Assembly: GCA_030264375.1 (NCBI GenBank)
Contig: JASCQW010000043.1
Coordinates: forward strand, 73,880,680-73,944,679
Reading direction: 5' to 3'
Length of the DNA stretch: 64,000 nucleotides
Source: Carcharhinus longimanus
Lineage: Eukaryota
In this document: positions 16,097 through 64,000 of the stretch, piece by piece
How the letters are laid out: each line of letters starts with the position of its first letter
Position numbering within the stretch: position 1 is the first letter of the stretch
Position numbers and translations under genes: made by a program
The notes under the pieces: generated by a model
What the model saw: the letters and a program-made list of their open reading frames with translations, nothing else
The model's database searches: none
What the model was told of the DNA's origin: nothing

Positions 16097-17430
16097 TTTG
16101 ATTTTATTTATTACTGTGACGTGTATTAGTATACAGTGAAAAGTATTGTTTCTTGCACTCTACACAGACTAAGCATACCAAACATAGAGAAGGAAAGGAG
16201 AGAATGCAGAATTTAGTGTTATAATCATAGGTAGGGTGTAGAGAAAGATCCCAAAAGAGAAAACAGAAAGAGAAAATGCTGGAAAATCTCAGCAGGTCTG
16301 GCAGTATCTGTAAGGAGAGAAAAGAACTGATATTTTGTGTCCGATGACCCTTTGTCAAAGTAGTGAAAGATCAGCTTAATATAAGGTAGTTTCGTTCAAA
16401 GGTCTGATGACAGCAGGGACGAAGCTGTTTTTGAGTCAGTTGGTACGTGACCTCAGACCTTTGTATTTATTTTCTTGACAGAAGAAGGTGAAAGAGAGAA
16501 TGCCTGGAATGTAGTTCCTTGCAGTCTTGGCTAGAGCAAGAACCATATTAAGCTGTGATACAACCAGAAATAATGCCTTTTGTGGTGCATCTGTAAAAGT
16601 TGGTGGAAGTCATAGCAGACACGCCAAATTTCATAAGTCTTCTGAGAAAGCAGAGGCATTGCTGACTTTCTTAACTGTAGTGTCAGCATGAGGGGACCAG
16701 GACAGGTTGTTGGTGATCTGGACACCTAAAAGCTTGAAGCTCTTGACCATTTCCACATCATCCCCATTTAATGTAGATAGGGGCATGTGCTTCCTGAAGT
16801 CGATGACTTTCTCCTTCATTTTGTTGACATTGATGGAGAAATTATTGTCACTGCAGCAGTTCACCAGATTCTCTATTTCCCCTGTACTCTATCTTGTCAT
16901 TGTTTGAGATCCGACCCACCACGGTGGTGTCATCAGCAAACCTGAAAATTGAGTTGGAGGGAAATTTGACCACACAGTCAAAGGTGTATAAGGAGCATAG
17001 TATGTGGCTGAGGACACAGCCTTGTGGGGCGTCAGTGTTGAGGATGATTGTGGAGGAGGTATCGTTACCTGTCCTTACTGATTGTGGCCTGTTAGTTAGG
17101 AAGTTCAGGATCCAATTGCAGAGGGAGGAGCCAAGCCACTGAGTTTGGAGATGAGTTTCATGGGAATAACGGTGTTAAAAGCTGAACTGTAGTCGATAAA
17201 TAGAAGTCTGGCATAGGTGTATTTGTTATCTACATGTTAAGGGGTTGATTGTAGGGTCAGGGAGATGGCATCTGCTGTGGTTCTGTTGTGGCAGTGGAGG
17301 AATTGTAGTGGATCCAGGCAATCTGGGAGGCTGGAGTTGATTCATGCCATGAGTAACCTTTCAAAGCACATCATAATGATGGATGTCAGAGTCACAGGAC
17401 GATAGTAATTAAGTCGTGTTGCCTGCCTTT
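16097..17430 (-). mobile_element. Rex1/Babar LINE RT and 3' end, with a nested Penelope piece at 16251-16359
   Basis: The - strand reads [25 protein letters not shown] and FKLLGVQITNNLSW; frameshifted. Confidence 0.85.
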
Positions 17431-30733: not shown

Positions 30734-30896
30734 TCCATTTGATAAGAATTCTGCTGATTGTAGAATAGTCCCACCTTGCCAGCTAAAAGAGAAAAATGAG
30801 AAATGGCAGTCGTGAGACTCGATATAGAATGAAAAAGAAATCCTGTTGACCATAACGTGCAATGTTTTAGATCTTGAGGTTTCTTTTATTTTTAAG

Positions 30897-30945
30897 CTCC
30901 TGAGATCGTGAACTACGAACCCCTTGGTCTCGAGGCTGATATGTG
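30897..30945 (+). CDS. DAPK1: DAPK1 exon 6 equivalent: (A)PEIVNYEPLGLEADM(W)
   Basis: tttaag acceptor, gtgagt donor, 49 nt; APE motif. Confidence 0.96.
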
Positions 30946-31039
30946 GTGAGTGCAGAGAAACTATGTCAGCAGAGCTTTTGGATGTGGTTTTTAAACAATT
31001 TGCAGAAATGTATAAGCATTGTTGTTTCATGTGTTTCAG

Positions 31040-31066
31040 GAGCATTGGTGTCATAACCTACATTCT
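31040..31066 (+). CDS. DAPK1: DAPK1 exon 7 equivalent, 27-nt micro-exon: (W)SIGVITYI(L)
   Basis: tttcag acceptor, gtaagt donor; completes DMWSIGVITYIL. Confidence 0.95.
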
Positions 31067-31495
31067 GTAAGTATTACATTTTTAAACAGATATTCCTTTT
31101 CTTGCAGTTGTCAGTGTATTGTCATGAGGAAAGTACCTGGCAAAAACCACTGTGCTGCATTCAAAACTCTGACACAGCGCCATAACTGGAGATGAGATAA
31201 TGTCAGCACCTTGAAGTATCTGAAATTGCCCTAACATCACACTTCAGGAATATTTTTTGAAAATGTGTATATAATTCTTTGGAATTCTCTAAAGACCCAC
31301 TCCAGATTTGTGACTGAGTTATGGATTTTTTTCCTATGTAGTTGGTTAAAGGGCTAAATAAACAGAAGTTCCCAAGTATAATTAAATTTTGTGGTAACTG
31401 TAATTCCTTTTAAAACAGTAGGTGCTGCAGATCTGCAGTCCAGTAGTGCAATGGGCGATTCAGCATTGCTTCCAATTAAATTATAGGCTGAGTTG

Positions 31496-34542: not shown

Positions 34543-35801
34543 TAATAGCTAGTTATCTCGGTTGTTCCAATGTAAAACAATATCCTACAGATATACACCC
34601 TTCTTCAGACTTGGTTAGCGCAAACACAAGTATGTTCATGTGATGCTAGGTTTTCAGCTTTTTAACCCTTTAGCAATTTTCAGAGAAGGATATATTATCC
34701 GAACAACAAAAGCTCAGTGTTGCACAAGACAGTGAAATTATCCTTCTCAATTTTTATTGATTTTCTTTGCAAATTTCATGTAATAAATGAATGATATTGA
34801 CTTGAACTCCTTTGGGGAGCCTGACATTGAATCAAAGAAAATGAGAGGTTACAATTGGACAGGGTAAAATTCTTTTGCTTGGTAATTTTGACAAAATAAA
34901 GTCCTATCAATCACTTTGTAATTTGGTTTTGTGGTTGGCATCACTGAATAAGGAACTGTTCTTTCCCCCATGTATAAATTGTAGCATATTTTAGAGCAAC
35001 CATTTTGATGAAAATCCTGGAATTTGCCTCACTCTTATATTCACATACCAGAAGCCCTGTATGTGCGTTNNNNNNNNNNNNNNNNNNNNNNNNNNNNNNN
35101 NNNNNNNNNNNNNNNNNNNNNNNNNNNNNNNNNNNNNNNNNNNNNNNNNNNNNNNNNNNNNNNNNNNNNAGAAGCCCTGTATGTGCGTTTAAACTTGCAG
35201 TATTTAGAATAAGTACAGTGCACTGTGATTTTATAATACAAAACTTCACATAACCTTCATGTATATGTTTATTTTGCTGAACTGAAAACTGAGCTCAACT
35301 TAGTCAAAGGCTGCACTGATTCACTTACCTGCATTCTCAAAATGGCTTAACTAGAACCTCTGGAGATTCCACAGCCAGATTGCACAATGTTAGAAATGAG
35401 CTGTTGCATTCAGACCAATGCCCTACCAAGTTATAGATTTACAATAATGGCAATTCATATTTTCAACCACTCCACCCTCAGAAAGAAAGAAAAAAGAAAC
35501 TAAAGATGGATGAAGAGAAAAAAGCATCCAATAGTTGCTATATTTAACCACCATTGTGTGAAGAACAATTTTATCCTGTTGACTTAAGTCCAATTTTCAG
35601 ATCATGTTTATACACCACACGATGCTTAATGCTACATTTGAAATGATCTTACATAATCTTGTAAAATAAACTAAAGGACCCTCAAGACAGCCTGAAAACA
35701 GCAGATTGAGATGCTTGTGTAGGTAGTAGGGATTTGTTTTCTATTTGATTGCTGCAGTGTTTTTAATTGTATATTTTACTTTTGTAATGTGTCTTTAATA
35801 G

Positions 35802-48434: not shown

Positions 48435-48532
48435 TCTGGTGAAACTGCCNNNNNNNNNNNNNNNNNNNNNNNNNNNNNGAAGTGGTACAGTACCTCTGCA
48501 ACGTTGGGATTAACCCAAACCTTCAAGATAGG
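48435..48532 (+). CDS. DAPK1: DAPK1 exon 15 equivalent, ankyrin repeat interrupted by an N gap: SGETA-[gap]-EVVQYLCNVGINPNLQDR
   Basis: ctgcag acceptor, gtaaga donor; 29 Ns at 48450-48478 where 30 nt are expected. Confidence 0.9.
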
Positions 48533-50647: not shown

Positions 50648-51130
50648 TCATAACATAAGAAATAGGAGCAGGAGTAGGCCATCTAGCCCTTTGAGCCTAC
50701 CCCACTATTCAATAAGATCATGGCTGATCTGAAGTGAATCAGTTCCACTTTCCCATTTTCTCCCCATAACCCTTAATTCCCTTGTCTATCAGAAATCTAT
50801 CCACCCGTGACTTAAATATATTCAACGAGGTAGNNNNNNNNNNNNNNNNNNNNNNNNNNNNNNNNNNNNNNNNNNNNNNNNNNNNNNNNNNNNNNNNNNN
50901 NNNNNNNNNNNNNNNNNNNNNNNNNNNNNNNNNACACTCAGCCCCCTCCTCCAGATCATCTATATAAATGGTAAACAGTTGAGGCCCCAGCACTGATCCC
51001 TGCGGCACTCTACTAGTCACCAACTGCCAACCAGAATAGCACCCACTAATTCCAACTCTCTGCTTCCTGTTAGACAACCAATCCTCAATCCACGCTAACA
51101 CCTTACCCCCAACTCTGTGTACCCTAACCA
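50648..51130 (-). mobile_element. CR1 LINE RT and 3' end spanning an N gap
   Basis: [15 protein letters not shown]...[18 protein letters not shown]; tail cataacataagaaataggagcagg. Confidence 0.88.
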
Positions 51131-53150
51131 TGCTACCTGTTAGGTGAATTCCCACCAATGTTACTTGTTTACAGGAAATGAATTCAATATCTTATGTTAG
51201 AATGTACACTATATTTTGCTTTATTTTAGCAAAAGGAAGCACTTAACAGCTACAAGAGATGTACAAAAAATATATAGGTTTAAGGAGCAAAAGGAGAGCA
51301 GTTGTGTTCCTGCCTGTCAAATGAGATATCTAGCATAATCCCACCTTCCAGCTCTTGGTCCATAGCCCTGTTAGTTCCAACCTTTTGGTGCATATCCAAG
51401 TGTTTTTTGTAAATGCAATCAGCGTTTGAAGCTTCCAACATCAATGAGGAGAACAGTGTCAAAACAAGGCATTATAAATGACAAATGGTGGTTGGCCTTT
51501 TATAGAAATAATACAAAATAACTTTCTCTTCAAACTACTTGCAGTCGAGGATTCAAGTATGCTTAAACTTGTGGCAAGCAATCCTGTTAGAAATACACAA
51601 GTTGATTTACAACAGTACCAGTAAGGAGATAGAGCCCACTAAAATGATATGTGATATTAATTTGCCTGTAACCATAAAGACATCCACTGATAGGGTTTGA
51701 ACAATGCAGATTTAGCCAGTGCTGATTATTTAGCCGATGGGAAATAAAAATAAAGAATGATAAATGTCAGCAAAGGCCCTTGACATTTATGGAACACTTA
51801 GCAGAACATAAAAACTCTTACTTTGCTATTGCAGTTTGAGTTCACAATCATTTTAATTATGAACAGTTGCAGCTCAGGTACGTAAGAACAGGTTAAATAA
51901 TCTTGCAGAATTTTTTTAGTGTGTCATTCAATGACAGTGTGAATGAATGTTCTTGTTGGAGGTTGTTTCCTTCCCCTAATTACTCTTGGTGCTGATATAT
52001 CAGGAATGGTGTATTTGTGTGCAACCCACTTAACATTTGTCAGCAGGCTGTTGACCTGTAGGGACCACCACACCCAAACCTGATTCTGCCGCTGAGCAAT
52101 ATCCACATACTTGCACATGAGAAAGGGTCACTAGATACATGGAAGGAGAGGAGATCTGGGTGATATGTTCTTCCCACTGCAGTGGCCTTGGCTGAGAGCA
52201 GCTATCTGAACAGAGAGCCAGAATCCAACCTAGAACTCTGGAGCCTTGTGTCACACTTTGCAGTTGCTAGTTCAGTCACTGGAGGAGCTCGTTCATGCTG
52301 TCATTTTCCCATTCTTTGAAAATAAATCAGAAACTTAACAGTAGAATATCACCATTGGATACAGATGGGCAGTGTGGGCCTATTCAGCTCATCGTAACTG
52401 ATCCACCCAGAATTCCTCCAACACAACAACCAACTCTTAAATCCATTGCTTGGGTTGATCATTCCCTTGTCTGATTAGAAACATTCTGGCATCTATTTAA
52501 AAATAATCACGTCTCACTTCTGAAAATGGTGAATCAGTGCCACTTAAATAGCATTGCAAGATTTAGTATATTGAACCAATTTGTCAACCAGTCAGACTGC
52601 TTGATTCCATGAAACACATGATTGAGTTCATATTTCTGCTAACAGCCTCACTGAACCTAAAAGACTAATTTTATAATTGTGGAAAATCATTTTAATTCTG
52701 GTGAATTCCAAGTTTTTAATACCTTTTAGAAAGTACATGATGTTTCAGTTTGTACCTTGATCCCTTTTGCATGTGATCATTTATTTTGTTCTCTACAAAA
52801 GTTCATTAAATCTGAAGGATATTCAGGGCATTTTACTTCCTGATTTATTGTCTGAGAATACTTACCTTGTCTGATGACATTATTGCTGGATGCCTGGAGA
52901 TTCCCTTGAATTGACACCAAGTTAAGAGTAATGTCAAAAAAGGGGAAATCCACACTAAATCTTTCTGAGTAGTTTCCTTCAAGGTCATTGGCAAGTGCCA
53001 TCATTTGTGATCACAAACACCTGAGCTAATGTTGCTTTAATCTGTTTATTTCTGTGTGTTTTAGTACTTGAAATATTCAATTGTTTCTGCTATTTAGATA
53101 TGGTCTGATTATAACTTTAACTGCATTCACACGGTTGGTAAGTACTTTTT

Positions 53151-53500
53151 GGGGAGGCAGTGGTATAGTGATATTGTCACTGGACAAGTAATCCAGAGAC
53201 CTAGGGTGTTACTTTGGGGACCCGGGTTTAAATTCCAGCACAGCAGATGGTGAGATTTGAATTCAATGAAAATTTGGAATTTAAAATCTAATGATGACCA
53301 TGAAACCATTGTCAATTGTTGCATTAACCCAGTTGGTTCACTAATGTCCTTTAGGGAAGGAAATCTGCCAGCCTTCCCTCATGTGGTCTACATGTGACCC
53401 CTGATCCACAATGTGATTAACTCTTAAATGCCCTCACAGATGGACAAAAAAATGCTGGCCCAGTTAGCGACGCCCACATTCCATAAATTAATAAAAAAAA
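53151..53500 (+). mobile_element. tRNA-derived SINE, second family
   Basis: Matches 39932-40272; A-rich end. Confidence 0.78.
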
Positions 53501-53584
53501 GTTGATTCATTGCCTTAGAGAATTTCTCATATCAATACTTGAATAAAATTAATAAACTTACAACACTGTACTGGAGAGGTTTTT

Positions 53585-53888
53585 AAGTTATTTATTAGTG
53601 ACACAAGTAGACTTATATTAACACTGCAATGAAGTTACTGTGAAAATCTCCTAGTCGCCACACTCCGGCACCTATTCAGGTACACCGAAGGAGAATTTAG
53701 CATGGCCATTGCACCTAACTCTCACGTCTTTTGGCCTGTGGGAGAAAAGCAGAGCACCCAGAGGAAACCCACGCAGACACGGGGAGAACGTGCAAACTCC
53801 ACACAGTCAGTGACCCATGCAGGAACCAAACCCAGGTCTCTGGCACTGTGAGGCAGCAGTGCTAACCACTGTGCTGCCGTGCTGCCCC
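53585..53888 (-). mobile_element. V-SINE, tail B (well preserved)
   Basis: Full-length match to the other copies. Confidence 0.9.
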
Positions 53889-54202
53889 TATACAATGAGG
53901 TTCAATGCAATGGACAATTTATACTAGACATTTAACATACTACTTCATTTTCTAGTCATTCAGCCAGCCTGTTAGTTGGCACGGTAACATGTGAACAAAT
54001 CAGAGGTGCTGGTTGCATTACAGGAGCCCCAGCTAGCAGTTCAGCTTCTGCTCCTATACTAGACAGCCCCGTGCAATTGCACAGTTGCTTCATCCCGGCA
54101 CTCTGGTGCAGCATTTGTAGTTGTTACCTCTTAATATTTTATTTTTGTTAATATGTCCATTTTTTAAAAAATTTTAATCCTTTTTATTTTTCATTGTTCT
54201 AG

Positions 54203-54400
54203 GACCAAGAGACTCCTCTGCATTGTGCAGCTTGGCATGGTTACTATGCTGTGGCTAAAGCACTCTGTGAAGCTGACTGCTCTGTTCATGTGAAAAATAA
54301 AGAAGGAGAGACTCCCCTCCTGACAGCAGCAGCAAGAGGCTATGTGGATATTGTGGAGTGTCTGATAGAACACAATGCCGACATTGATGCAGTTGACACG
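54203..54400 (+). CDS. DAPK1: DAPK1 exon 16 equivalent, two ankyrin repeats: DQETPLHCAAWHGYYAVAKALCEADCSVHVKNKEGETPLLTAAARGYVDIVECLIEHNADIDAVDT
   Basis: ttctag acceptor, gtaaga donor, 198 nt. Confidence 0.97.
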
Positions 54401-56834
54401 GTAAGATTGGAATGTGTGGCACGTTGAAATTTCCAGCTTCACAATATTGCAAATCATTTCCTTTCAAGGATGTTTGATTCTCATGTGCACTGTGTACTGG
54501 ATGTGTCTATCTATATGCTTTTCTGCTGGCTTTGGAGCTGTTTGTTTGGAATCTTAGTTATGTATAATTGCTGTTTTAGCAGCAAAGCTAGTAAAGATCT
54601 TCTTTGCCACCAGTGACTGCTAGCTTATAGTGCTGTCTTTTTTTCAGTATCCCAATAGCCCTATATCTTGCAAAAGTGATATTACAACATTAGTCACGTT
54701 GCTCTGTTCTTGACACATACAGGATTTAAGCACATGAGTCATTTCCCCTGCTGAATATCATTCTGAGAGAACAGATCTATTCTTCCCAGATGATTAAGAT
54801 GCAATTATGATTACTTCAAGCAAAATTTCTGCCTAAGGACGATAAGCACATTTACATTGACACTTGTTTAGCTGGAGACTAGCAACCATGGTGTAGGTTC
54901 CTGTGTTTACATTGTTAAATCAGGTGCTCATCCCAGCATCAGAATGTAAATGCGCAAAAAAGTGGATTTACATTTCTGATGCCAGGGCGAAGGCAAGATT
55001 ACAACAGAAATACATGGAGTGGTGGTAGATGCTGATATCTTGCAATCCAAAGTAAATAACTGACATTGTAAGAGTGTGCTTTGATTCTGCTCTCAGCTAA
55101 CATCACTAAGTAGCTAGCGATGATTGAGAATGTGCCAGATTTTCAGAAAATGGACAATGCAAATGTAACACAATGCACTGAATTTGACATTTCTGCAACC
55201 ATTGAATTATTCCACACAAATGTATGCATATGGGTTGAAAGCATATGACGTTAATTGCCACAATTCCCAAAATAAGCAGAAATGACTTAGAAATTGCAGA
55301 AGTCTTAGTTTGTCAAATGGTACGTTTGGATTTTGAAACCTTCACACCCGGTGAGCAAGTGCAGGTCATCAAACCACTGAGGAACCAAGAGGACAGTTTT
55401 AGATTCTTCGTCACGCATCAGATGGAGGAATTAAAACAAATCCTTGTGATGTTTGCTGCAGCAGCGAGAAAGAAAAGGCTTGGTTAAATTCTAAATTACA
55501 TTTACATTGTGTTTCCTTTCCTCCAAACGTGCATGTGACACCTTTTAAGCAAGGTATGGCTGTAAACCACATAGATGGAGAAGAACTTAGTAGCAATCCT
55601 TGCAAAGCAGAAGTTGCATTAGGATATGACCAGGTTCCGCTGCCAACTCCTTCCCAATGTGCGTGTGAATATGCACACATACGGTCACCGGTACTTTCCG
55701 TCGAACCTCGTCTATCATAGATAGAGCAGGCAACTGGAATCCTAGCCCAGATAAGATATCACTGCTTTTGACTAATTCACGCTGTCAGATAGGCAAGATG
55801 CTAAATTTAATCACTGATCTGTGCTGATCTACATGTGCTGGAGTCGTAGTGCTACAGTTGGTTGCAGCATATCTGGTCATGGTGTTGAAAATTAGTCAGC
55901 ATTCCTGTTGCTAATAGCTGGAGCTTGGGCAGAAAGCAAAGCAAAAACTCTGGGATCATGGCCCATCATCAGGAGAAATCTGCAAAGGGGGTTGGAGGGA
56001 AGAAAAGTTACTGAGCTGGAAAAAGAAATGGAGTAAGTTGGGAAGGGAAACTGGTGAATATGGATGCTTTGAAGTCTTTGTCCTCGAGGACTAAAAATGA
56101 AGTTAAATCACAAAGATTCCGCACGGAGATTAGAGACACAGACATAAGATCATTATTTGAAAATTGAGCTTGAATTTGCCTCCCATTTGCTATTTCCACT
56201 AAGTTTCTAAGGTAACACTTGGGTTATATTTGCAAGACATTCTTGCTTTTGCTTCAGAATTTCCCAATTGTATGAGTTAATTCCCATTGGTTTTAGCAAG
56301 TGGCACATCAATTAAAATAATCATCTAATGCTGAATATGATGTGATGTTCCAGTGGTGTGACTTGTTCCCCCACACGCAGCTGCCACGTTCAGAGCATTC
56401 TTTGTTGCAAGTTTCTTAAACTTTCACCAAGTGCATCATTGACTGTGAGCTGCTTGAGAGCCTGAGTTGGTGGAAGTTAGGCTGCCATTTCATTTGGGTT
56501 CTTCCTAGGTTGTTCCCAAACAAGGGACATTTTTCTATGTTAGAATCATCCTTTTACTAGCTATTTACTACTTCACATTGGGTTAGATTGTTCCGAGTCC
56601 ATTTTTAAACTAAAGACTGAGGATGTGGAGGCATGTCCCCTACTGAGCTGGGGGAAGACTCTTGCAGGATACAGGGAAAGAATTCACCTTCTAGGCAGGG
56701 GCCACTCAAGAATCGTGAATGGTGCAAACTTGTCTGCTACTCCATTTACAAGTTAACGGGTTTGTCAAAAGGACCATTGAACATATCTCAGTGCCCTAAT
56801 TTATATATCAAAGGGGTCTGGTGCTTTTTTTAAA

Positions 56835-57539
56835 GATGTGGCGATGCCGGCGTTGGACTGGGATAAGCACAGTAAGATGTCTCTTAACACCAGTTAAAGT
56901 CCAACAAGTTTATTTGGTAGCACAAACCACAAGCTTTCCAAGCGCTGCTCCTTCATCAGGTGAGTGGGAGTTCTGTTCACAAACAGGCATATAAAGACAC
57001 AATTCAATTTACAAAATAATGGTTGGAATGTGAGTCTTTACAGGTAATCAAGCCTTAAAGGTACAGACAATGTGAGTGGAGAGAGTGTTAAGCACGGGTT
57101 AAAGAGATGTGTATTGTCTCCAGGTCGGACAGTTAGTGAGATTTTGCAAGCCCAGGCAAGTCATGGGGGTTACAGATAGTGTGACGTGATCCCGGTTGAG
57201 GCTGTCCTCATGTGTGCGGAACTTGGCATTCAGTTTCTGCTCAGCAATTCTGCGCTGTCGTGTCGTGAAGGCTGCCTTGGGGAACGCTTACCCGAAGATC
57301 AGAGGCTGAATACCGTGACCGCTGAAGTGTTCCCCAACAGGGAGAGAACAGTCTTGCTTGGTGATTGTTGAATTCACCGGGTACACGGTCATACTCTTGC
57401 AATTCGGCCAACATTGTCTACCTGAAACGCTGCAGGAAAGGATGACCCGAGACACAGTACAGTGGGGAGACCGTGCAGATGCTATGACACATGGATGAAT
57501 GAACCCCGTTCAACAATCACCAAGCAGCAGTGTTCTTTC
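56835..57539 (-). mobile_element. Penelope-like element 3' part: terminal repeat and GIY-YIG endonuclease remnant with an inverted 5' segment
   Basis: The - strand reads TITKQDCSLPVGEHFSGHG...RRIAEQKL..KFRTHEDSLNRD; the + strand at 57374-57539 reads YSCNSANIVYLKRCRKG*PETQYSGET. Confidence 0.85.
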
Positions 57540-57542
57540 AGT

Positions 57543-57785
57543 GGCTTGGTTCACTGTCTGTGCAGAGTCTGCACGTTCTCCCTGTGTTTGTATCGTTTAT
57601 CTCTGGTGGCTCTGGTTTACTCCCACAGTCCGAAAAACATGCAGGTTAGAGGCATTGACCATACTAAATTCTCCTTCAATGTACTCAAAAAGGGAACGGA
57701 GTGCGGTGACTCAGGGATTTTCACAGTAACTTCATTGCAGTGTTAATGTAGGCCCACTTACGACTCTAAAAAATAAACTAAGCTA
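57543..57785 (+). mobile_element. 5'-truncated V-SINE, tail B
   Basis: Starts within the body, immediately after the Penelope inversion. Confidence 0.82.
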
Positions 57786-57934
57786 AACTCTTGCTTTCTC
57801 TTTACTCATTGGTCTATCAAATCTTCCCACATTTGATCCTTTGCCTCCACTGTGTATTTAAAGCCCTCTTTACCTTCTTATTTACGCGGAACATTACAAT
57901 ACCAGCTCCAATATGGTTCATATATAAACTTTAC

Positions 57935-58412
57935 AGGTTTGATTCCAGGGATGGAGGGACTGATGTATGAGGAGAGATTGACTAGATTAGGATTGTTTTC
58001 ACTGGAGTTCAGATAAATGAGGTGGGTCTCATAAAAATTCTAAAATTCTAACAGGACTAGACAGGGTAGATGCAGGGAGGATGTTCCTGTTGATGGGTGT
58101 GTTCAGAACCAGGGGTCACAGTCTGAGGATTTGGGGTAGACCATTTAGGACGGAGAGGATGAGTCATTTTTTCATTCAAAGAGTATTGAGCCTTTGGAAT
58201 TCATTACCACAGGAATTAGTTGATGCCAAAACATTGAATGTACCCAGGAGGCAGCTAGTTATAGCACTTGGAGTGAATGGGATCAAAAGTTATGGGGAGA
58301 AAGCAGGATTAGGTTATTGAGTTGGACAATCAGACATGATCATGGTGAATGGAGGAGTGGACTCAAAGGGCAACATGGCCTCCTCCTGCTGCTATCTTCT
58401 AAGTTTCTATGT
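57935..58412 (+). mobile_element. CR1 LINE 3' end
   Basis: LIPGMEGLMYEERLTRLGLFSLEF...TRGHSLRI; tail ending tttctatgt. Confidence 0.85.
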
Positions 58413-58733
58413 ATTAGGTTGTTTGGGAGTGTGAGGGTTAACATGGGTCTGGGGGAACAGTACCAACTGCATTATGATGTTGAGAGTCACATGGGAGGAG
58501 TGAAGGTTGTAGTAAGTCCAATAGAAGTTTGCATAAAAATAGCACCTATCTGTATCCTGTATATATGTAAAGAGTTATGTGTAATTAATAAACACTTATT
58601 GTTCAACCATACAAACCTCTAGACCTTTTCACGAGACTATAGGCAATCTTACAATAGCTTGAAAAGCTGGAAACATATTGATGAAGAGATAGCTCAGTTT
58701 TAAATCAAAAAAGCTCTTGGGCTGTTGAAAAGC

Positions 58734-58822
58734 AGCAAAACCAGACAATGCTATCAAGAAGGTAGCAAAACCAGACAGTGCTATCAAGAAGGTAGCAAAA
58801 CCAGACAGTGCTATCAAGAAGG
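58734..58822 (+). repeat. 30-bp tandem repeat, 3 copies (agcaaaaccagacagtgctatcaagaaggt)
   Basis: Directly visible; one substitution in the first copy. Confidence 0.95.
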
Positions 58823-60560
58823 ACATCAAGAGGCAAGTGTAGTTAAAAAGGAGATGTCAGGATGTCAGGTGGTGGCATAGTGGATTATTATTCTCAAGAT
58901 CCATTACAATGCTCTGGGGACCTGGGTTCAAATCCCACTACGTCAGATGATGATATTTGAATTCAATAAAATCTGGAAGTTAAAGTTTAATGAATATCAT
59001 GGATAGATCAACGAGGCCCTGACAAAGTAATATCCTGTCCACTATTAAGAAGAAAACTTATGTACATACAAGAAGCTTTTAGGGGAACGTCTTTATTGGA
59101 GATGATGAATGAACCCAACTGATCATGGAAGGAGTACTGCAGCCATGGGAACAAATTCACTGAAGGAGCTTGGCAGTCAAAGAGGAAACTTGACTCACTT
59201 TCCGAAGTATATTTAAGGGAACTCCAATCATTTTTGGAAGAATATTAAGGGAGCATGACTCTTTGACAAGCGAATGTTTAAAGGACTGATTGTCAGAAGG
59301 ATCTCTACAATCAAAAGGGGTTTGTCTCTTGGAGATGATTTAATGGCTGTGTACTTATATTTGCATATGCATTTAATGTGCATATGGTTTAATGGGCTGC
59401 ACGCCCAAACTTGCTGGCACTTCCCCCTTTACCACCGCGTTCGTCCATCCAGATTCAGTATGAAACAGATATAGTCTACAAAGGTCTGAATTGGGCGCTC
59501 CAGCTTCTGAGAAGGCGAGAAGGTAAGTTCTAAGCATCTGGTGGCTCTCTGCATCAAATCAGCTGGGGGTAGAGGGGTGGGGGGGGGGGGGAGATGGCTC
59601 CACTCAGATCGGTTGGGGGTGTGTCCAGGGGATGTGGGGGGTGCTTGTTCCACTGCCACACTGCCTCTGCTCAGTGAGGCGGAAGGGGAGTTCCACTGCA
59701 TGTGATCGGTGGAGAGGAAGGGCGGCAGGGGGCCATGATCGGTCTGGGTGGCAGGGTCTTGGGGGATAAGGGATTAATGTTAGAGGGATGGGGCAATGTC
59801 TGTGGGGGCCAGGGGGAGGCATTATCCAGCGATGTGGCAGGGGATTGTTTTTCTTTTTTTTTAACTGTGCATGCACAGTTAGTGGTGCCAGTCAGAGCTG
59901 CAGCGTTTTGGGCATGTTAAGCCCCACCCACAGCCTTCTGCAGTACGATTCAGACTCGCTGATATTTTTTCAAGCAGAATGTGTATGGGGGAACCTGAGA
60001 AGAGGTCTAAAAGTCAGATCTGAAACAGTCCCAGTTTCAAATCTGCCCAGCACTTAGAACCAAAATGGTAAAATAGGACCCATAGAGTAACATATGAAAG
60101 GTAGGAGGTTAAGCCCTACAATATCTTCTCACTGCTGGGAGAAAATAATTTAACTGCTGGAGAGATTCAGTAATAACCTTTTCAGTATTTCTTGTCATTA
60201 GTTTAAATAATGCAGAATATACAATAGAAAATATTTCAAGACATTGAATGAGTGCTAATACAATGCACCATTTTTTTTCACGTCAGAGGTTAGTCAGGTT
60301 GTGGTGATAAGAAAATATGCTTGCACCTGAATATATTCCTCGATCGTGCTGCAGAGAAAAAACCCATCTGATTTTCAAATCTTTTCATTTTTACTTAGCA
60401 TGTTCCCAATACATGATACAAACTGGAGTGGAAAACTGATGAAGGGGAAGGGCTGTTTCTGGGCAAGTGCAGAAATGTGATAGTGCTTTTCCACAAGGAG
60501 ACAGTTCCGTTTGCCATTGGCTTCATTCTGCTTCTGCTGGAGATTATTGTTTTTGAGAAA

Positions 60561-60910
60561 GGGAGGCAGTGGCCTATTGCTAAACTATTAATCCAGAAAC
60601 TCAGCTAAAGTTCTGAGGACCCGGGTTCAAACTCTGCCACAGCAGATGGTGGAATTTGAATTCAATAAACAAATACTTGGAATTAAGAATCTACTGATGA
60701 GCTAGAAATCAGTGTTGATTGTCAGAAAAATCCATCTCGTTCACTAATGTTCTTTAGGGAAAGAAATGTGCTGTCCTTACCTGGTCTGGTGTACTCCAGA
60801 GCCACAGCAATGTGGTTGGCTCTCAATTGCTCTCCAAGGGTAATCAGGGATAGGCAATAAATGCTGGCCAAAATCAGTGACATCCATGTCCCATGAAGGA
60901 ATTTAAAAAA
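60561..60910 (+). mobile_element. tRNA-derived SINE, second family
   Basis: Matches 39932 and 53151. Confidence 0.75.
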
Positions 60911-61282
60911 AGATGGGATCCTGAAGGAGTAAAAAGGCATCCCTTTCTCTGAGAATGCTTTGAGAATCATATTGAAGGCAGCAACAGAAAATGAAGGCTA
61001 CCATTGTTAGTTGTAAAAGGCACTTTCCTCTGAAAACCCATTGTCTGAGCTATCTGTATGGAGGGTTCAGAGCAAACAAACACATGATTTCCAGTAAAGA
61101 GGTCATAAGGAATTCAACATTTTGAAGAGGTTTGCCAAGATGCTGTTGCTCTTTTTCAGTATCACAAAGATCTCATAAAAATTTTTGTGCAGCATTACAT
61201 AAGGACAGATTTGCCTCTAAACCACAATCACAGCTTTAAAATAATTGGCAATGTGATTAAAAACTTTTTCACACAACGAGAT

Positions 61283-61620
61283 GACACGGTACTACAGTGG
61301 TTAGCACTGCTGGTCCACAGCTCCAGGGACCGGGGTTCGATTCCCGGCTTGGGTCACTGTCTGTGTGGAGTTTGCACATTCTCCTCGTGTCTGCATGGGT
61401 TTCCTCTGGGTGCTTCAGTTTCCTCCCACAGTCCAAAGATGTGCAGGTTAGGTTGATTGGCCATGCTAAAAATTGCCCGTTAGTGTCCTGAGATGTGTAG
61501 GTAAGAGGGATTAGCAGGTAACTATGTAGGGATATGGGGGTAGGGCCTGGGTGGGATTGTGGTCGGTGCAGACTTGATGGGCGAATGACCTCTTTCTACA
61601 CCGTAGGGGTTTCTATAATT
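61283..61620 (+). mobile_element. V-SINE, tail A
   Basis: Full-length match to the other copies. Confidence 0.88.
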
Positions 61621-61873
61621 TCTTTGTTTCTGTGATATTCCTGACCTTTCATTCACTATCTAATCCCTCTATCTTTCACAAGTCAAGAGCTGCTGTGACC
61701 ACAGGTGAGTTATAAATTTCTGAGGAGGAGGAGGGAACTTTATACGATGCACCCTTGACACAAAAATCTGTGGGACTGACATCCCATAAGCCTAGGGATT
61801 AGGAAGAGAAACAGGTTGCAATATGAATGCACTTTTTAAAATTAATAATTGACACTAATAACAATAGATAGTC

Positions 61874-61879
61874 TTTATT
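61874..61879 (-). terminator. Possible polyadenylation signal (AATAAA) downstream of the antisense LRR exon
   Basis: tttatt on + strand, about 660 nt past the in-frame TAA that follows the LRR exon; this hexamer is common in AT-rich DNA. Confidence 0.25.
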
Positions 61880-62539
61880 TTTATATCAATAACAGTACTT
61901 AAAATATACTGTTAAATATTCAGTTATTATAAATGTACCCAGAATTTTACATTGCTCGGTAGGGCACGTCCCTGACCTGGTGCAAATCATGATGTCATAT
62001 TGCACTTTCAGTATTTCAATCAGCAGATGTTCATTAAGAGTCGGAAGTGCACACAAGAGTCGAGCTAACAATTTAGCCCAAACTAATACAATTTTACAGG
62101 TGCGTCTGTTTGTGTCAAGTGGCTCAATTGGTCAAACAGCCTTTACGTTTTAACTGAAACCTTGATCCAGGGAGGAATGAAAGGTTGGGGCTAAAATAAA
62201 AATTAACTGTTGTGTCAGTACTGTGATTAGTGCTTAAAATGTGCAGCTCAGACATTGTGAGCAACGTTACTCCATTGCAATGTAGATTTTACAGGGTGCC
62301 AGATACCTGTAGCTGAGCCAGCTTCACAGCAACAGTCCCAAGGGGGGACATAAATGCAAACACGTGCATTACTTTCTCTCAGTGTCCGCCCTTTGTCTCG
62401 TTTCTTGAGTAACGTTGGGCTTTTTCAGTGCACATTTCACACTGTTATTTAGTCGACAGCCAATGTGAATAGGTCCATCAGGCAAACGTGCCTGACAAGT
62501 GAAAATTTCGGACTATATTTCACACAATTTGGTACTTAC

Positions 62540-62710
62540 TCAAGTTTCCGTATTTCACAGTCCGGGCTCCTCAGAGCTTCAATCAGAAGTTTCAGTCCTG
62601 AATCTCCAAGTTTATTCCAACCTAGATTCAGGTCTTTTATTATCCAGTTTGCACAGAGAGCAGAGGTAAGATCTTCGGCACAAGAATCCGTGAGATTGTT
62701 ATCACACAGA
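62540..62710 (-). CDS. Leucine-rich-repeat exon of NLR (NACHT-LRR)/ribonuclease-inhibitor type: LCDNNLTDSCAEDLTSALCANWIIKDLNLGWNKLGDSGLKLLIEALRSPDCEIRKL(E)
   Basis: On the - strand: ttttttctctctcatctccag acceptor, gtaagt donor, exactly 171 nt, phase 2-2, no stops; RI-like motifs NxLTDSC and LxLxxNKLGDSG. Confidence 0.88.
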
Positions 62711-62831
62711 CTGGAGATGAGAGAGAAAAAAGTAACTAAAATCAGATTAAATCTCCAGTATTTTAAAGAACATGATTAATAACAGGAATAATGCACATTG
62801 TGAAACATTCAAAAAATACAACTTTTAAGAA

Positions 62832-63038
62832 CATGGCACAATGGTCAGCATTGCTGCCTTACAGCGCTAGGTACCCAGGTTCAATTCTAGCCTTGGGTCA
62901 CTGTCTATGTGGAGTTTATATGTTCTCCCCATGTCTGTGTGAGGTTCTTCCGGGTGCTCCAGTGCAGGTTAGTGGATTGGTCATGCTAAATTGCGCGTAG
63001 TGTCCAAAGATGTATAGGTTAGATGGATTAGCCATGGG
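62832..63038 (+). mobile_element. V-SINE, 3'-truncated
   Basis: Head and V-domain present. Confidence 0.8.
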
Positions 63039-63854
63039 GAAACATCAAATACACATGACGCCGTAGATGTGAAAAAAACTATTCTGGAAATGTCATTACA
63101 TCAGGCAGTACCTGAGAAAGGAGAAACAGATTAATGAGCTTGCATAAGAACAGGTGGCAAGGAAAGAACAAAAAGAAAGTGTACGTGTAATTAAAGTGAT
63201 ATTGATGATGGAGCGTTCCACACCATAAACCTGTGTCACAACATGACTGATGGTTAAGGAATGGAGTTTAAGGTCAAGACAAAGATAATGGCTGAGAGTA
63301 CAGCATATAATTTAAATGCGTTATATGTGAATAAAAATGAAAATAGCTGAAACATCATTCCCCAGCCAGTGACAATGCTCAGGCAGCAGTACTGGCTGTT
63401 CGACATATGACAGCCTGTCTGTGGAGGGCTCCAGAGTTGATGCTTACACTACTGTGACTGATACATGAGGTATCCATTTGCTAGGATAGACTAATGTGTG
63501 GCTTTGATGGGTGAATTGCAATGAAAAAATATGGCCTGAATGTTTTGCCCATCGGGTGCACGCACTGACAAGCCCAAAATCTGCCGTGAAATGCACTTCC
63601 GCTCATAATTGGCCCTGGAATGTAATTTCACATTGGCTGGCTAACTAATAGGTAGCCAGCGTAAATGCATACTGAGGAAGCTCAGTGGTACTGTGGAGGA
63701 CAGAAAGAGGGTGGGCACAGAGTAAAGGGAGGGAATGGTATGGCACTTCTGCACAGCCTTCTGGTGAGGGAATGTGCACATTGGTACCAACAACATAGAT
63801 AAACTAAGAGATGAAGACCTGCAAGCTGTGTATAGGAAGTTAGATGGAAATTAG

Positions 63855-64000
63855 ATGGAATTAAAATTCAGAACATCAAATATAGTAACCTCAGGAATAT
63901 GTGCAAACAAAAGCAGGAATAAGATGTTAGACCTACGAATGACTGGAGAGGTGGTACATCCAGGAGGGATTCAGATTCTTGAGGTACTGGGACTGGTTCC
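63855..64000 (+). mobile_element. CR1 ORF1 esterase-like fragment
   Basis: LKFRTSNIVTSG...LERWYIQEGFRFLRYWDWF. Confidence 0.6.

Follow-up and report, generated by a model that had tools for sequence, protein, structure and literature searches.

The last part of a 64,000-nucleotide window of the Carcharhinus longimanus genome (the whole stretch of DNA analysed here) carries on its minus strand an intact exon of an NLR gene. The exon (62710-62540) encodes one pair of leucine-rich repeats (LRRs) of the ribonuclease inhibitor (RI) type, and it lies opposite the host gene DAPK1. We see about an even chance that it belongs to a 3'-truncated copy that was dispersed from an NLR cluster and is tolerated because it is antisense. 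The element is a new member, and probably a truncated piece, of an expanded family that is already known. An earlier note, made from the letters of the window, had posed the choice between a nested gene and an orphan exon, and that was the right question to ask.

Results

The exon is 171 nt long and has phase 2-2. On the minus strand it is preceded by a pyrimidine tract with an AG acceptor (62731-62711, the AG being 62712-62711) and followed by a GTAAGT donor (62539-62534). One base finishes the codon begun in the preceding exon; 56 complete codons follow, none of them a stop, and two bases are left. The stop-free 171-nt phase 2-2 exon reported in the earlier note, with its acceptor and donor, was thus confirmed. 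The note had also called the plus-strand frame meaningless, and the corresponding ORF (62453-62776) indeed has no Pfam match.

The RI-like LRR content of the exon is well supported too. In a tblastn search the shark NLR protein P0004 matched the exon with 88% identity (108 bits, E 2.7e-26). In a search of PDB, 51 sequences were found at E<=0.001, with RI and NLRP structures at the top, and the exon covers whole repeat pairs of these structures. Pfam LRR_6 gave an E-value of 0.0011 only, which is under the family cut-off. The LRR identity is far beyond chance, and the exon is a genuine NLR-gene exon. It has the length (171 nt), the two LRRs and the symmetrical phase of the RI-like LRR module, in agreement with the definition of the 171-nt two-repeat NLRP module in the accessible text of Hoss et al. 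2019 (PMC6642158); the note had named the same module. RI heads the PDB list through summed repeats only. The best single RI repeat has about 31 bits versus 108 bits for the shark NLR, and the identification of the exon as ribonuclease inhibitor (RNH1) was rejected. By blastn with the exon and its flanks, the window has no further copy of it. Between the exon and the upstream end of the window lie 1.29 kb, in which tblastn, HMMs and sliding profiles detected neither NACHT nor LRR.

A database search for longer proteins with this exon resulted in 18 candidates. The exact exon is absent from all of them, and eight match it; all of these are "NLRP3-like" NACHT-LRR proteins of sharks or rays. The best match is P0004 (Mustelus asterias, 952 aa, 88%), whose penultimate LRR unit is identical to the exon in 49 of 56 residues. 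A search with P0004 gave 1407 relatives, the best 120 of which were listed, and 123 proteins were examined in all. Among the 577 repeat units of these proteins, the eight best matches to the exon share 42-49 of 56 residues with it, and every one of them carries an NW..K mark. This mark and a second one, LGWNK, are found in the penultimate LRR unit of P0004, P0006, P0007, P0137, P0158, P0173, P0174 and P0221. Within the 123 proteins (the best 120 of 1407 matches listed), the NW..K subfamily is restricted to Mustelus and Scyliorhinus; white shark and basking shark have no NW..K protein among the matches listed. A 50%-representative library of 149 proteins includes no NW..K protein, and its closest unit shares 39 of 56 residues with the exon. 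In a tree of 81 units, based on 56 columns only, the window exon is sister to P0004 (97/87) within the NW..K group (93/65). Judged by these similarities, the exon is a member of the expanded NACHT-LRR family of cartilaginous fishes and would be a penultimate-LRR exon of the carcharhiniform NW..K subfamily. The window would accordingly stem from a carcharhiniform shark.

Six of the eight subfamily proteins are encoded on three chromosomes, the other two on short scaffolds. Among the matches listed, these chromosomes carry seven NLRs in Mustelus (103.5 Mb), 11 in S. canicula (226 Mb) and seven in S. torazame (376 Mb). The pyrin Pfam accession, which we presume to be the correct one, is listed for none of the 123 relatives (precomputed Pfam families, the best 120 of 1407 matches listed), and by this measure the shark relatives are probably not NLRP3 orthologues; the N-terminus that belongs to the window exon would lie outside the window. 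The accessible part of Tan et al. 2021 (PMC8455134) describes the shark expansion as NLRP-related, standing beside and not within the true NLRPs.

Two observations concern the history of the family. A FastTree tree of the NACHT region splits the NW..K proteins, which do not form one clade there (3 changes). The LRR-exon and NACHT histories may differ, and this tree hints at an exchange of LRR exons between paralogues. P0204 is an NLR of Mustelus asterias flagged as low-quality and located on a 148.8-Mb contig; the main Mustelus cluster is on another chromosome. It is possibly another dispersed copy. It was rejected as an orthologue of the window exon, having no NW..K exon and grouping elsewhere.

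After the NW..K unit, all eight subfamily proteins continue for 84-85 residues. According to the repeat register, from which we took the exon borders of the relatives, these residues would stem from a further LRR exon and a short terminal one. We searched for both by tblastn with eight NLRs, by three HMMs (last LRR exon, terminal exon and whole subfamily) in six frames, and by 18 sliding 12-column profiles of the last 85 residues. Neither exon was found in the window, and this includes the gap-free 8.1 kb between the LRR exon and DAPK1 exon 16. The intact nested antisense receptor gene proposed in the earlier note is thus disfavoured. A terminal-exon-like stretch at minus 60542 was rejected, as its 11.5 bits equal the background maximum.

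The note had found no further LRR exon downstream. This is true of intact exons; there is, however, the decayed start of a last-type LRR exon on the minus strand (61791-61751), 750 nt downstream of the exon, which is a new finding. This stump is preceded by a pyrimidine tract and AG (61812-61792). One extra base after the acceptor shifts the frame, 39 nt with 13 LRR-like codons follow (LWDVSPTDFCVKG, part of ORF 61676-61798), and then the similarity ends. BLAST and HMM do not see the stump. Of 127,918 positions in six frames, the stump (10.1 bits, the next having 6.5) is surpassed by the intact exon only. It scores 16.2 on the last-exon-start profile, where the background top is 7.8, and 13.9 on the inner-unit profile, where the background top is 14.1. 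With thresholds chosen post hoc, 0.47 such sites are expected by chance in the whole window, 0.03 in the 8.1-kb stretch and 0.0004 at its 114 acceptor-like sites. The stump and the intact exon are identical in 26 of 39 nt.

The start of the stump is of the LWDV type, and the last exon of the subfamily starts with LYEN or LYNN (7 of the 7 shown). V-G at positions 4-5, as in the stump, occurs in 30 of 69 last exons of the wider family. The stump is probably an older relic within the intron that follows the exon and was probably dead long before, in which case it would not date the exon copy. An old relic of this kind is predicted to occur also in the corresponding intron of intact NW..K genes. 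Since it has an acceptor and an exon of its own, the element is a multi-exon, intron-bearing piece of genomic DNA, neither a retrocopy nor a lone exon. The "orphan shuffled exon" of the earlier note was therefore close to the truth but too narrow. A processed pseudogene was likewise rejected, since the acceptor, the donor and the second exon stump are all present.

On the plus strand, DAPK1 exons 3-15 follow in order at 19469-48532, exon 15 being broken by 29 N, and exon 16, which encodes ankyrin repeats, lies at 54203-54400 with an intact GT donor in phase 0. The exon numbering is the one we assume for the human gene. All 14 exons (3-16, 19469-54400) are open, have canonical splice sites and are close to those of the white shark. 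An NLR-type LRR exon antisense to DAPK1, as claimed in the note, is thus what the window contains. Exon 16 is the last DAPK1 exon in the window, from which exon 17 (residues 543 onward) is absent. As the exon 16 donor at 54400 is intact and exon 17 would lie beyond the window, it is plausible that the LRR exon is nested in DAPK1 intron 16, and DAPK1 would resume beyond 64000. Intron 16 would then be at least 9.6 kb long, versus 95-5671 nt for the other 13 introns; intron 2 already exceeds 19 kb. The shortest intron, of 95 nt, separates exons 6 and 7 (30896-31067) and is tiny for this locus. A synteny look-up in the supplements of PMC13188829 found no row for DAPK1, and a literature search for reports of an NLR within DAPK1 introns of sharks gave no such paper.

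The window has ten gaps and contigs of 1-13 kb, a pattern that marks a short-read draft. The gap of 29 N in exon 15 (48450-48478) stands where 30 bases are needed, and an annotator would see a frameshift there. The flanks of the 100-N gaps at 35070, 42066 and 46380 overlap by about 20-40 nt, so no DNA is missing; one more gap is a microsatellite. There is no N from 50934 to 64000, so DAPK1 exon 16 and the LRR exon are on one contig. The gap nearest to the LRR exon is 11.6 kb off, beyond exon 16.

Upstream of the LRR exon there is an interspersed repeat (62825-63039), presumably a SINE, overlapped by up to 16 matches to other parts of the window; a repeat of the same family (61280-61620) lies just downstream of the stump. 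Three repeat remnants, for which we likewise have only presumed element names, pile up at 56833-58400, where the T-A skew switches sign. This pile-up is a candidate junction between DAPK1-intron DNA and NLR-derived DNA. In unmasked DNA, the skew of DAPK1 introns is +0.03, and beyond 58 kb it is -0.076. Block shuffles gave p from 0.0005 to 0.003 for the tail, with the cut chosen after looking, and an unbiased change-point test gave p from 0.08 to 0.31; unmasked repeats can cause such a shift. The segment is not bracketed by a target-site duplication or a terminal repeat among the repeats listed, and no breakpoint signature was found. The repeats of the interval are 64-91% similar to their other copies in the window. 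The pile-up region also shows a 30-nt unit repeated three times (58729-58822) and a 31-nt inverted repeat with its arms 136 nt apart (57342-57539). Of the 60 ORFs of at least 95 aa in the window, only the DAPK1 kinase exon and one reverse transcriptase remnant had Pfam matches. The remnant lies in DAPK1 intron 2 (16851-17174, minus strand) and matches RVT_1 with E 6e-6, below the cut-off.

The note had allowed for a terminal exon, citing a GAG TAA on read-through of the donor and an AATAAA downstream. Both exist: the TAA is at 62538-62536, and the AATAAA (61879-61874) is 657 nt from it, in the former intron between the donor and the stump acceptor. The stop is uninformative because any phase-2 donor beginning with GTAA reads NNG TAA. 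The minus strand has 73 AATAAA, and the probability of one within 700 nt is 0.56, i.e., chance level. The evidence for a terminal exon was therefore rejected. If the exon were spliced to the stump acceptor, 16 out-of-frame residues would follow before a stop.

The intactness of the exon is no proof of function either. In a neutral simulation with 10% indels per substitution, a copy diverged by 3-5% keeps its frame and splice sites with a probability of 0.46-0.26. The exon has kept four CpG (observed/expected ratio 0.52; 0.47 in DAPK1 exons and 0.27 in introns), as is equally expected of a coding exon and of a young copy. Nor can relaxed selection be taken as proof of a pseudogene. The exon has two private changes (V39L and K52E) at columns invariant in the other seven distinct subfamily units, four residues unseen in the other units, and an end branch of 0.25 versus 0.087 for its sister. 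The functional-looking P0158 is equally deviant, with two changes at invariant columns and six unseen residues, and thus the signs of relaxed selection are suggestive only.

Discussion

In the explanation that we favour, the move, the breakpoint and the loss of function are inferred as follows. An intron-bearing piece of a carcharhiniform NACHT-LRR gene would have come from an NLR cluster, by copying or by a move, and settled antisense in DAPK1 intron 16. Its 3' breakpoint would be upstream of the true last LRR exon and the terminal exon, probably in the repeat pile-up near 57-58 kb. Such a copy would be unable to make the normal C-terminus and would be a young pseudogene fragment, its exon looking intact because little time has elapsed since copying. 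It would persist because antisense splice sites go unrecognised on the DAPK1 pre-mRNA. Read in phase 0, the exon has a stop at codon 3; DAPK1, whose intron 16 has this phase, would be terminated there by a spliced sense copy, so only an antisense copy would be tolerated. The explanation is favoured by the 84-85 residues of the subfamily proteins that are untraceable here save for the stump, by the clustering of the relatives, the private changes, the longer end branch and the skew, and by the outcome of the neutral simulation. For zebrafish, the accessible part of 10.1101/022061 describes 37 pseudogenes as well as single NLR genes that are dispersed. What speaks against it is that the exon has no lesion, that decay has gone much further in the stump than in the exon, that P0158 is equally deviant, that the skew cut was post hoc, that no breakpoint signature was found, and that one misjoin of the assembly accounts for the same absences.

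Misassembly, which the earlier note named only as a refutation, is indeed a serious rival. The contig with DAPK1 intron 16 would cross at the 56.8-58.4 kb repeats into an ordinary gene of an NLR cluster, and nothing would be nested. We regard such a misjoin as possible but rather doubtful, and the same holds for its corollary that DAPK1 and the NLR gene are both intact elsewhere. A single join would explain at once why exon 17 and the NLR 3' exons are missing and why the skew flips, and it agrees with the long intron 16, with the lesion-free exon and with a draft whose gaps include three with overlapping flanks and one within an exon. In zebrafish, NLR locations moved with better assemblies, according to the same accessible text. 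None of 16 lamniform NLRs among the best 120 of 1407 hits lies on the DAPK1 chromosome of white shark (205.6 Mb) or basking shark (228.6 Mb), which is weak evidence in the same direction. However, there is no gap between exon 16 and the LRR exon, the repeats in the interval look old and should be resolvable, and a long intron is unremarkable in a gene with such an intron 2. A real rearrangement that broke DAPK1 in intron 16 and fused it to an NLR cluster would also leave exon 17 out of the window. It is the least credible of the readings given here, since the 14 DAPK1 exons show no damage and four other cartilaginous fishes have full-length DAPK1.

The NLR might alternatively be functional. 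A C-terminally shortened gene nested antisense in intron 16, with its NACHT and first LRR exons beyond 64000, seems unlikely, and equally unlikely are its two conceivable ends, at the exon by donor read-through or after the 16 out-of-frame residues via the stump acceptor. Its merits are that the exon and both splice sites are intact although the next exon is ruined, that CpG and most LRR core residues are retained, and that an AATAAA is present downstream. But the stop and the AATAAA carry no information, and a young copy predicts intactness and CpG retention equally. None of the eight subfamily proteins ends at this exon, and neither the 18 candidate proteins nor the 149 representatives include it. 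An LRR solenoid is normally less stable when its capping repeat is lost. It is very improbable that the NLR is complete and interleaved with DAPK1, with the two final exons hidden further down the minus strand in gaps among the DAPK1 exons. Multicopy LRR exons typically fall into short-read gaps, and there are ten of these; yet the nearest is beyond DAPK1 exon 16, three are overlaps, one is a microsatellite and one is within exon 15, and both missing exons would need to be hidden.

Mammalian papers, in their accessible parts, link DAPK1 to activation of NLRP3 and the inflammasome. This would add to the appeal of a functional reading, but NLRP3 orthologues are not to be expected among the shark proteins, and a coupling of DAPK1 with an NLR is hypothetical here. 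We find it improbable that an NLR left its cluster, settled antisense in DAPK1 intron 16, lost the capping LRR and the terminal exons and is a still-expressed putative sensor with its transcription tied to DAPK1. If true, the locus would provide a worked example of how dispersal and C-terminal trimming can give rise to an immune receptor within a cell-death gene; if the trimmed receptor is really expressed within DAPK1, the evolution of LRR length and the antisense coupling of two immune genes become testable. On the likeliest reading, a dispersed and truncated copy, the element is another by-product of the birth-and-death expansion of shark NLRs and marks how cluster genes scatter. It also warns that NLR counts from draft genomes of sharks are inflated by lone LRR exons. 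The subfamily with the NW..K penultimate exon provides a handle for tracing orthologues in a family that has so far been described as a bulk expansion only.

Intron-nested antisense genes of vertebrates lie on the strand opposite to a long host gene. The window differs from them in that the 3' end of the guest is absent and the continuation of the host is unseen. With the mammalian NLRP/RI module (accessible text of PMC6642158) the exon shares the 171 nt, the two repeats, the symmetrical phase and a border in the beta strand; in sequence this module is far more distant from it than shark NLRs are. The zebrafish NLR-B30.2 genes, according to the accessible part of Howe et al. (10.1101/022061), likewise form clusters under birth-and-death evolution, shed single copies and pseudogenes and are prone to misplacement. 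They are a separate expansion, and B30.2 is not in the Pfam lists of the shark relatives. The closest known system is the shark NACHT-LRR family ("NLRP3-like" in RefSeq; accessible part of PMC8455134). As far as the window shows, the exon lies beside DAPK1 and not among NLR paralogues; compared with P0004, its nearest member of this family, the locus is without the following LRR exon and the terminal exon and has four private residues, and the exon bears the same NW..K and LGWNK marks.
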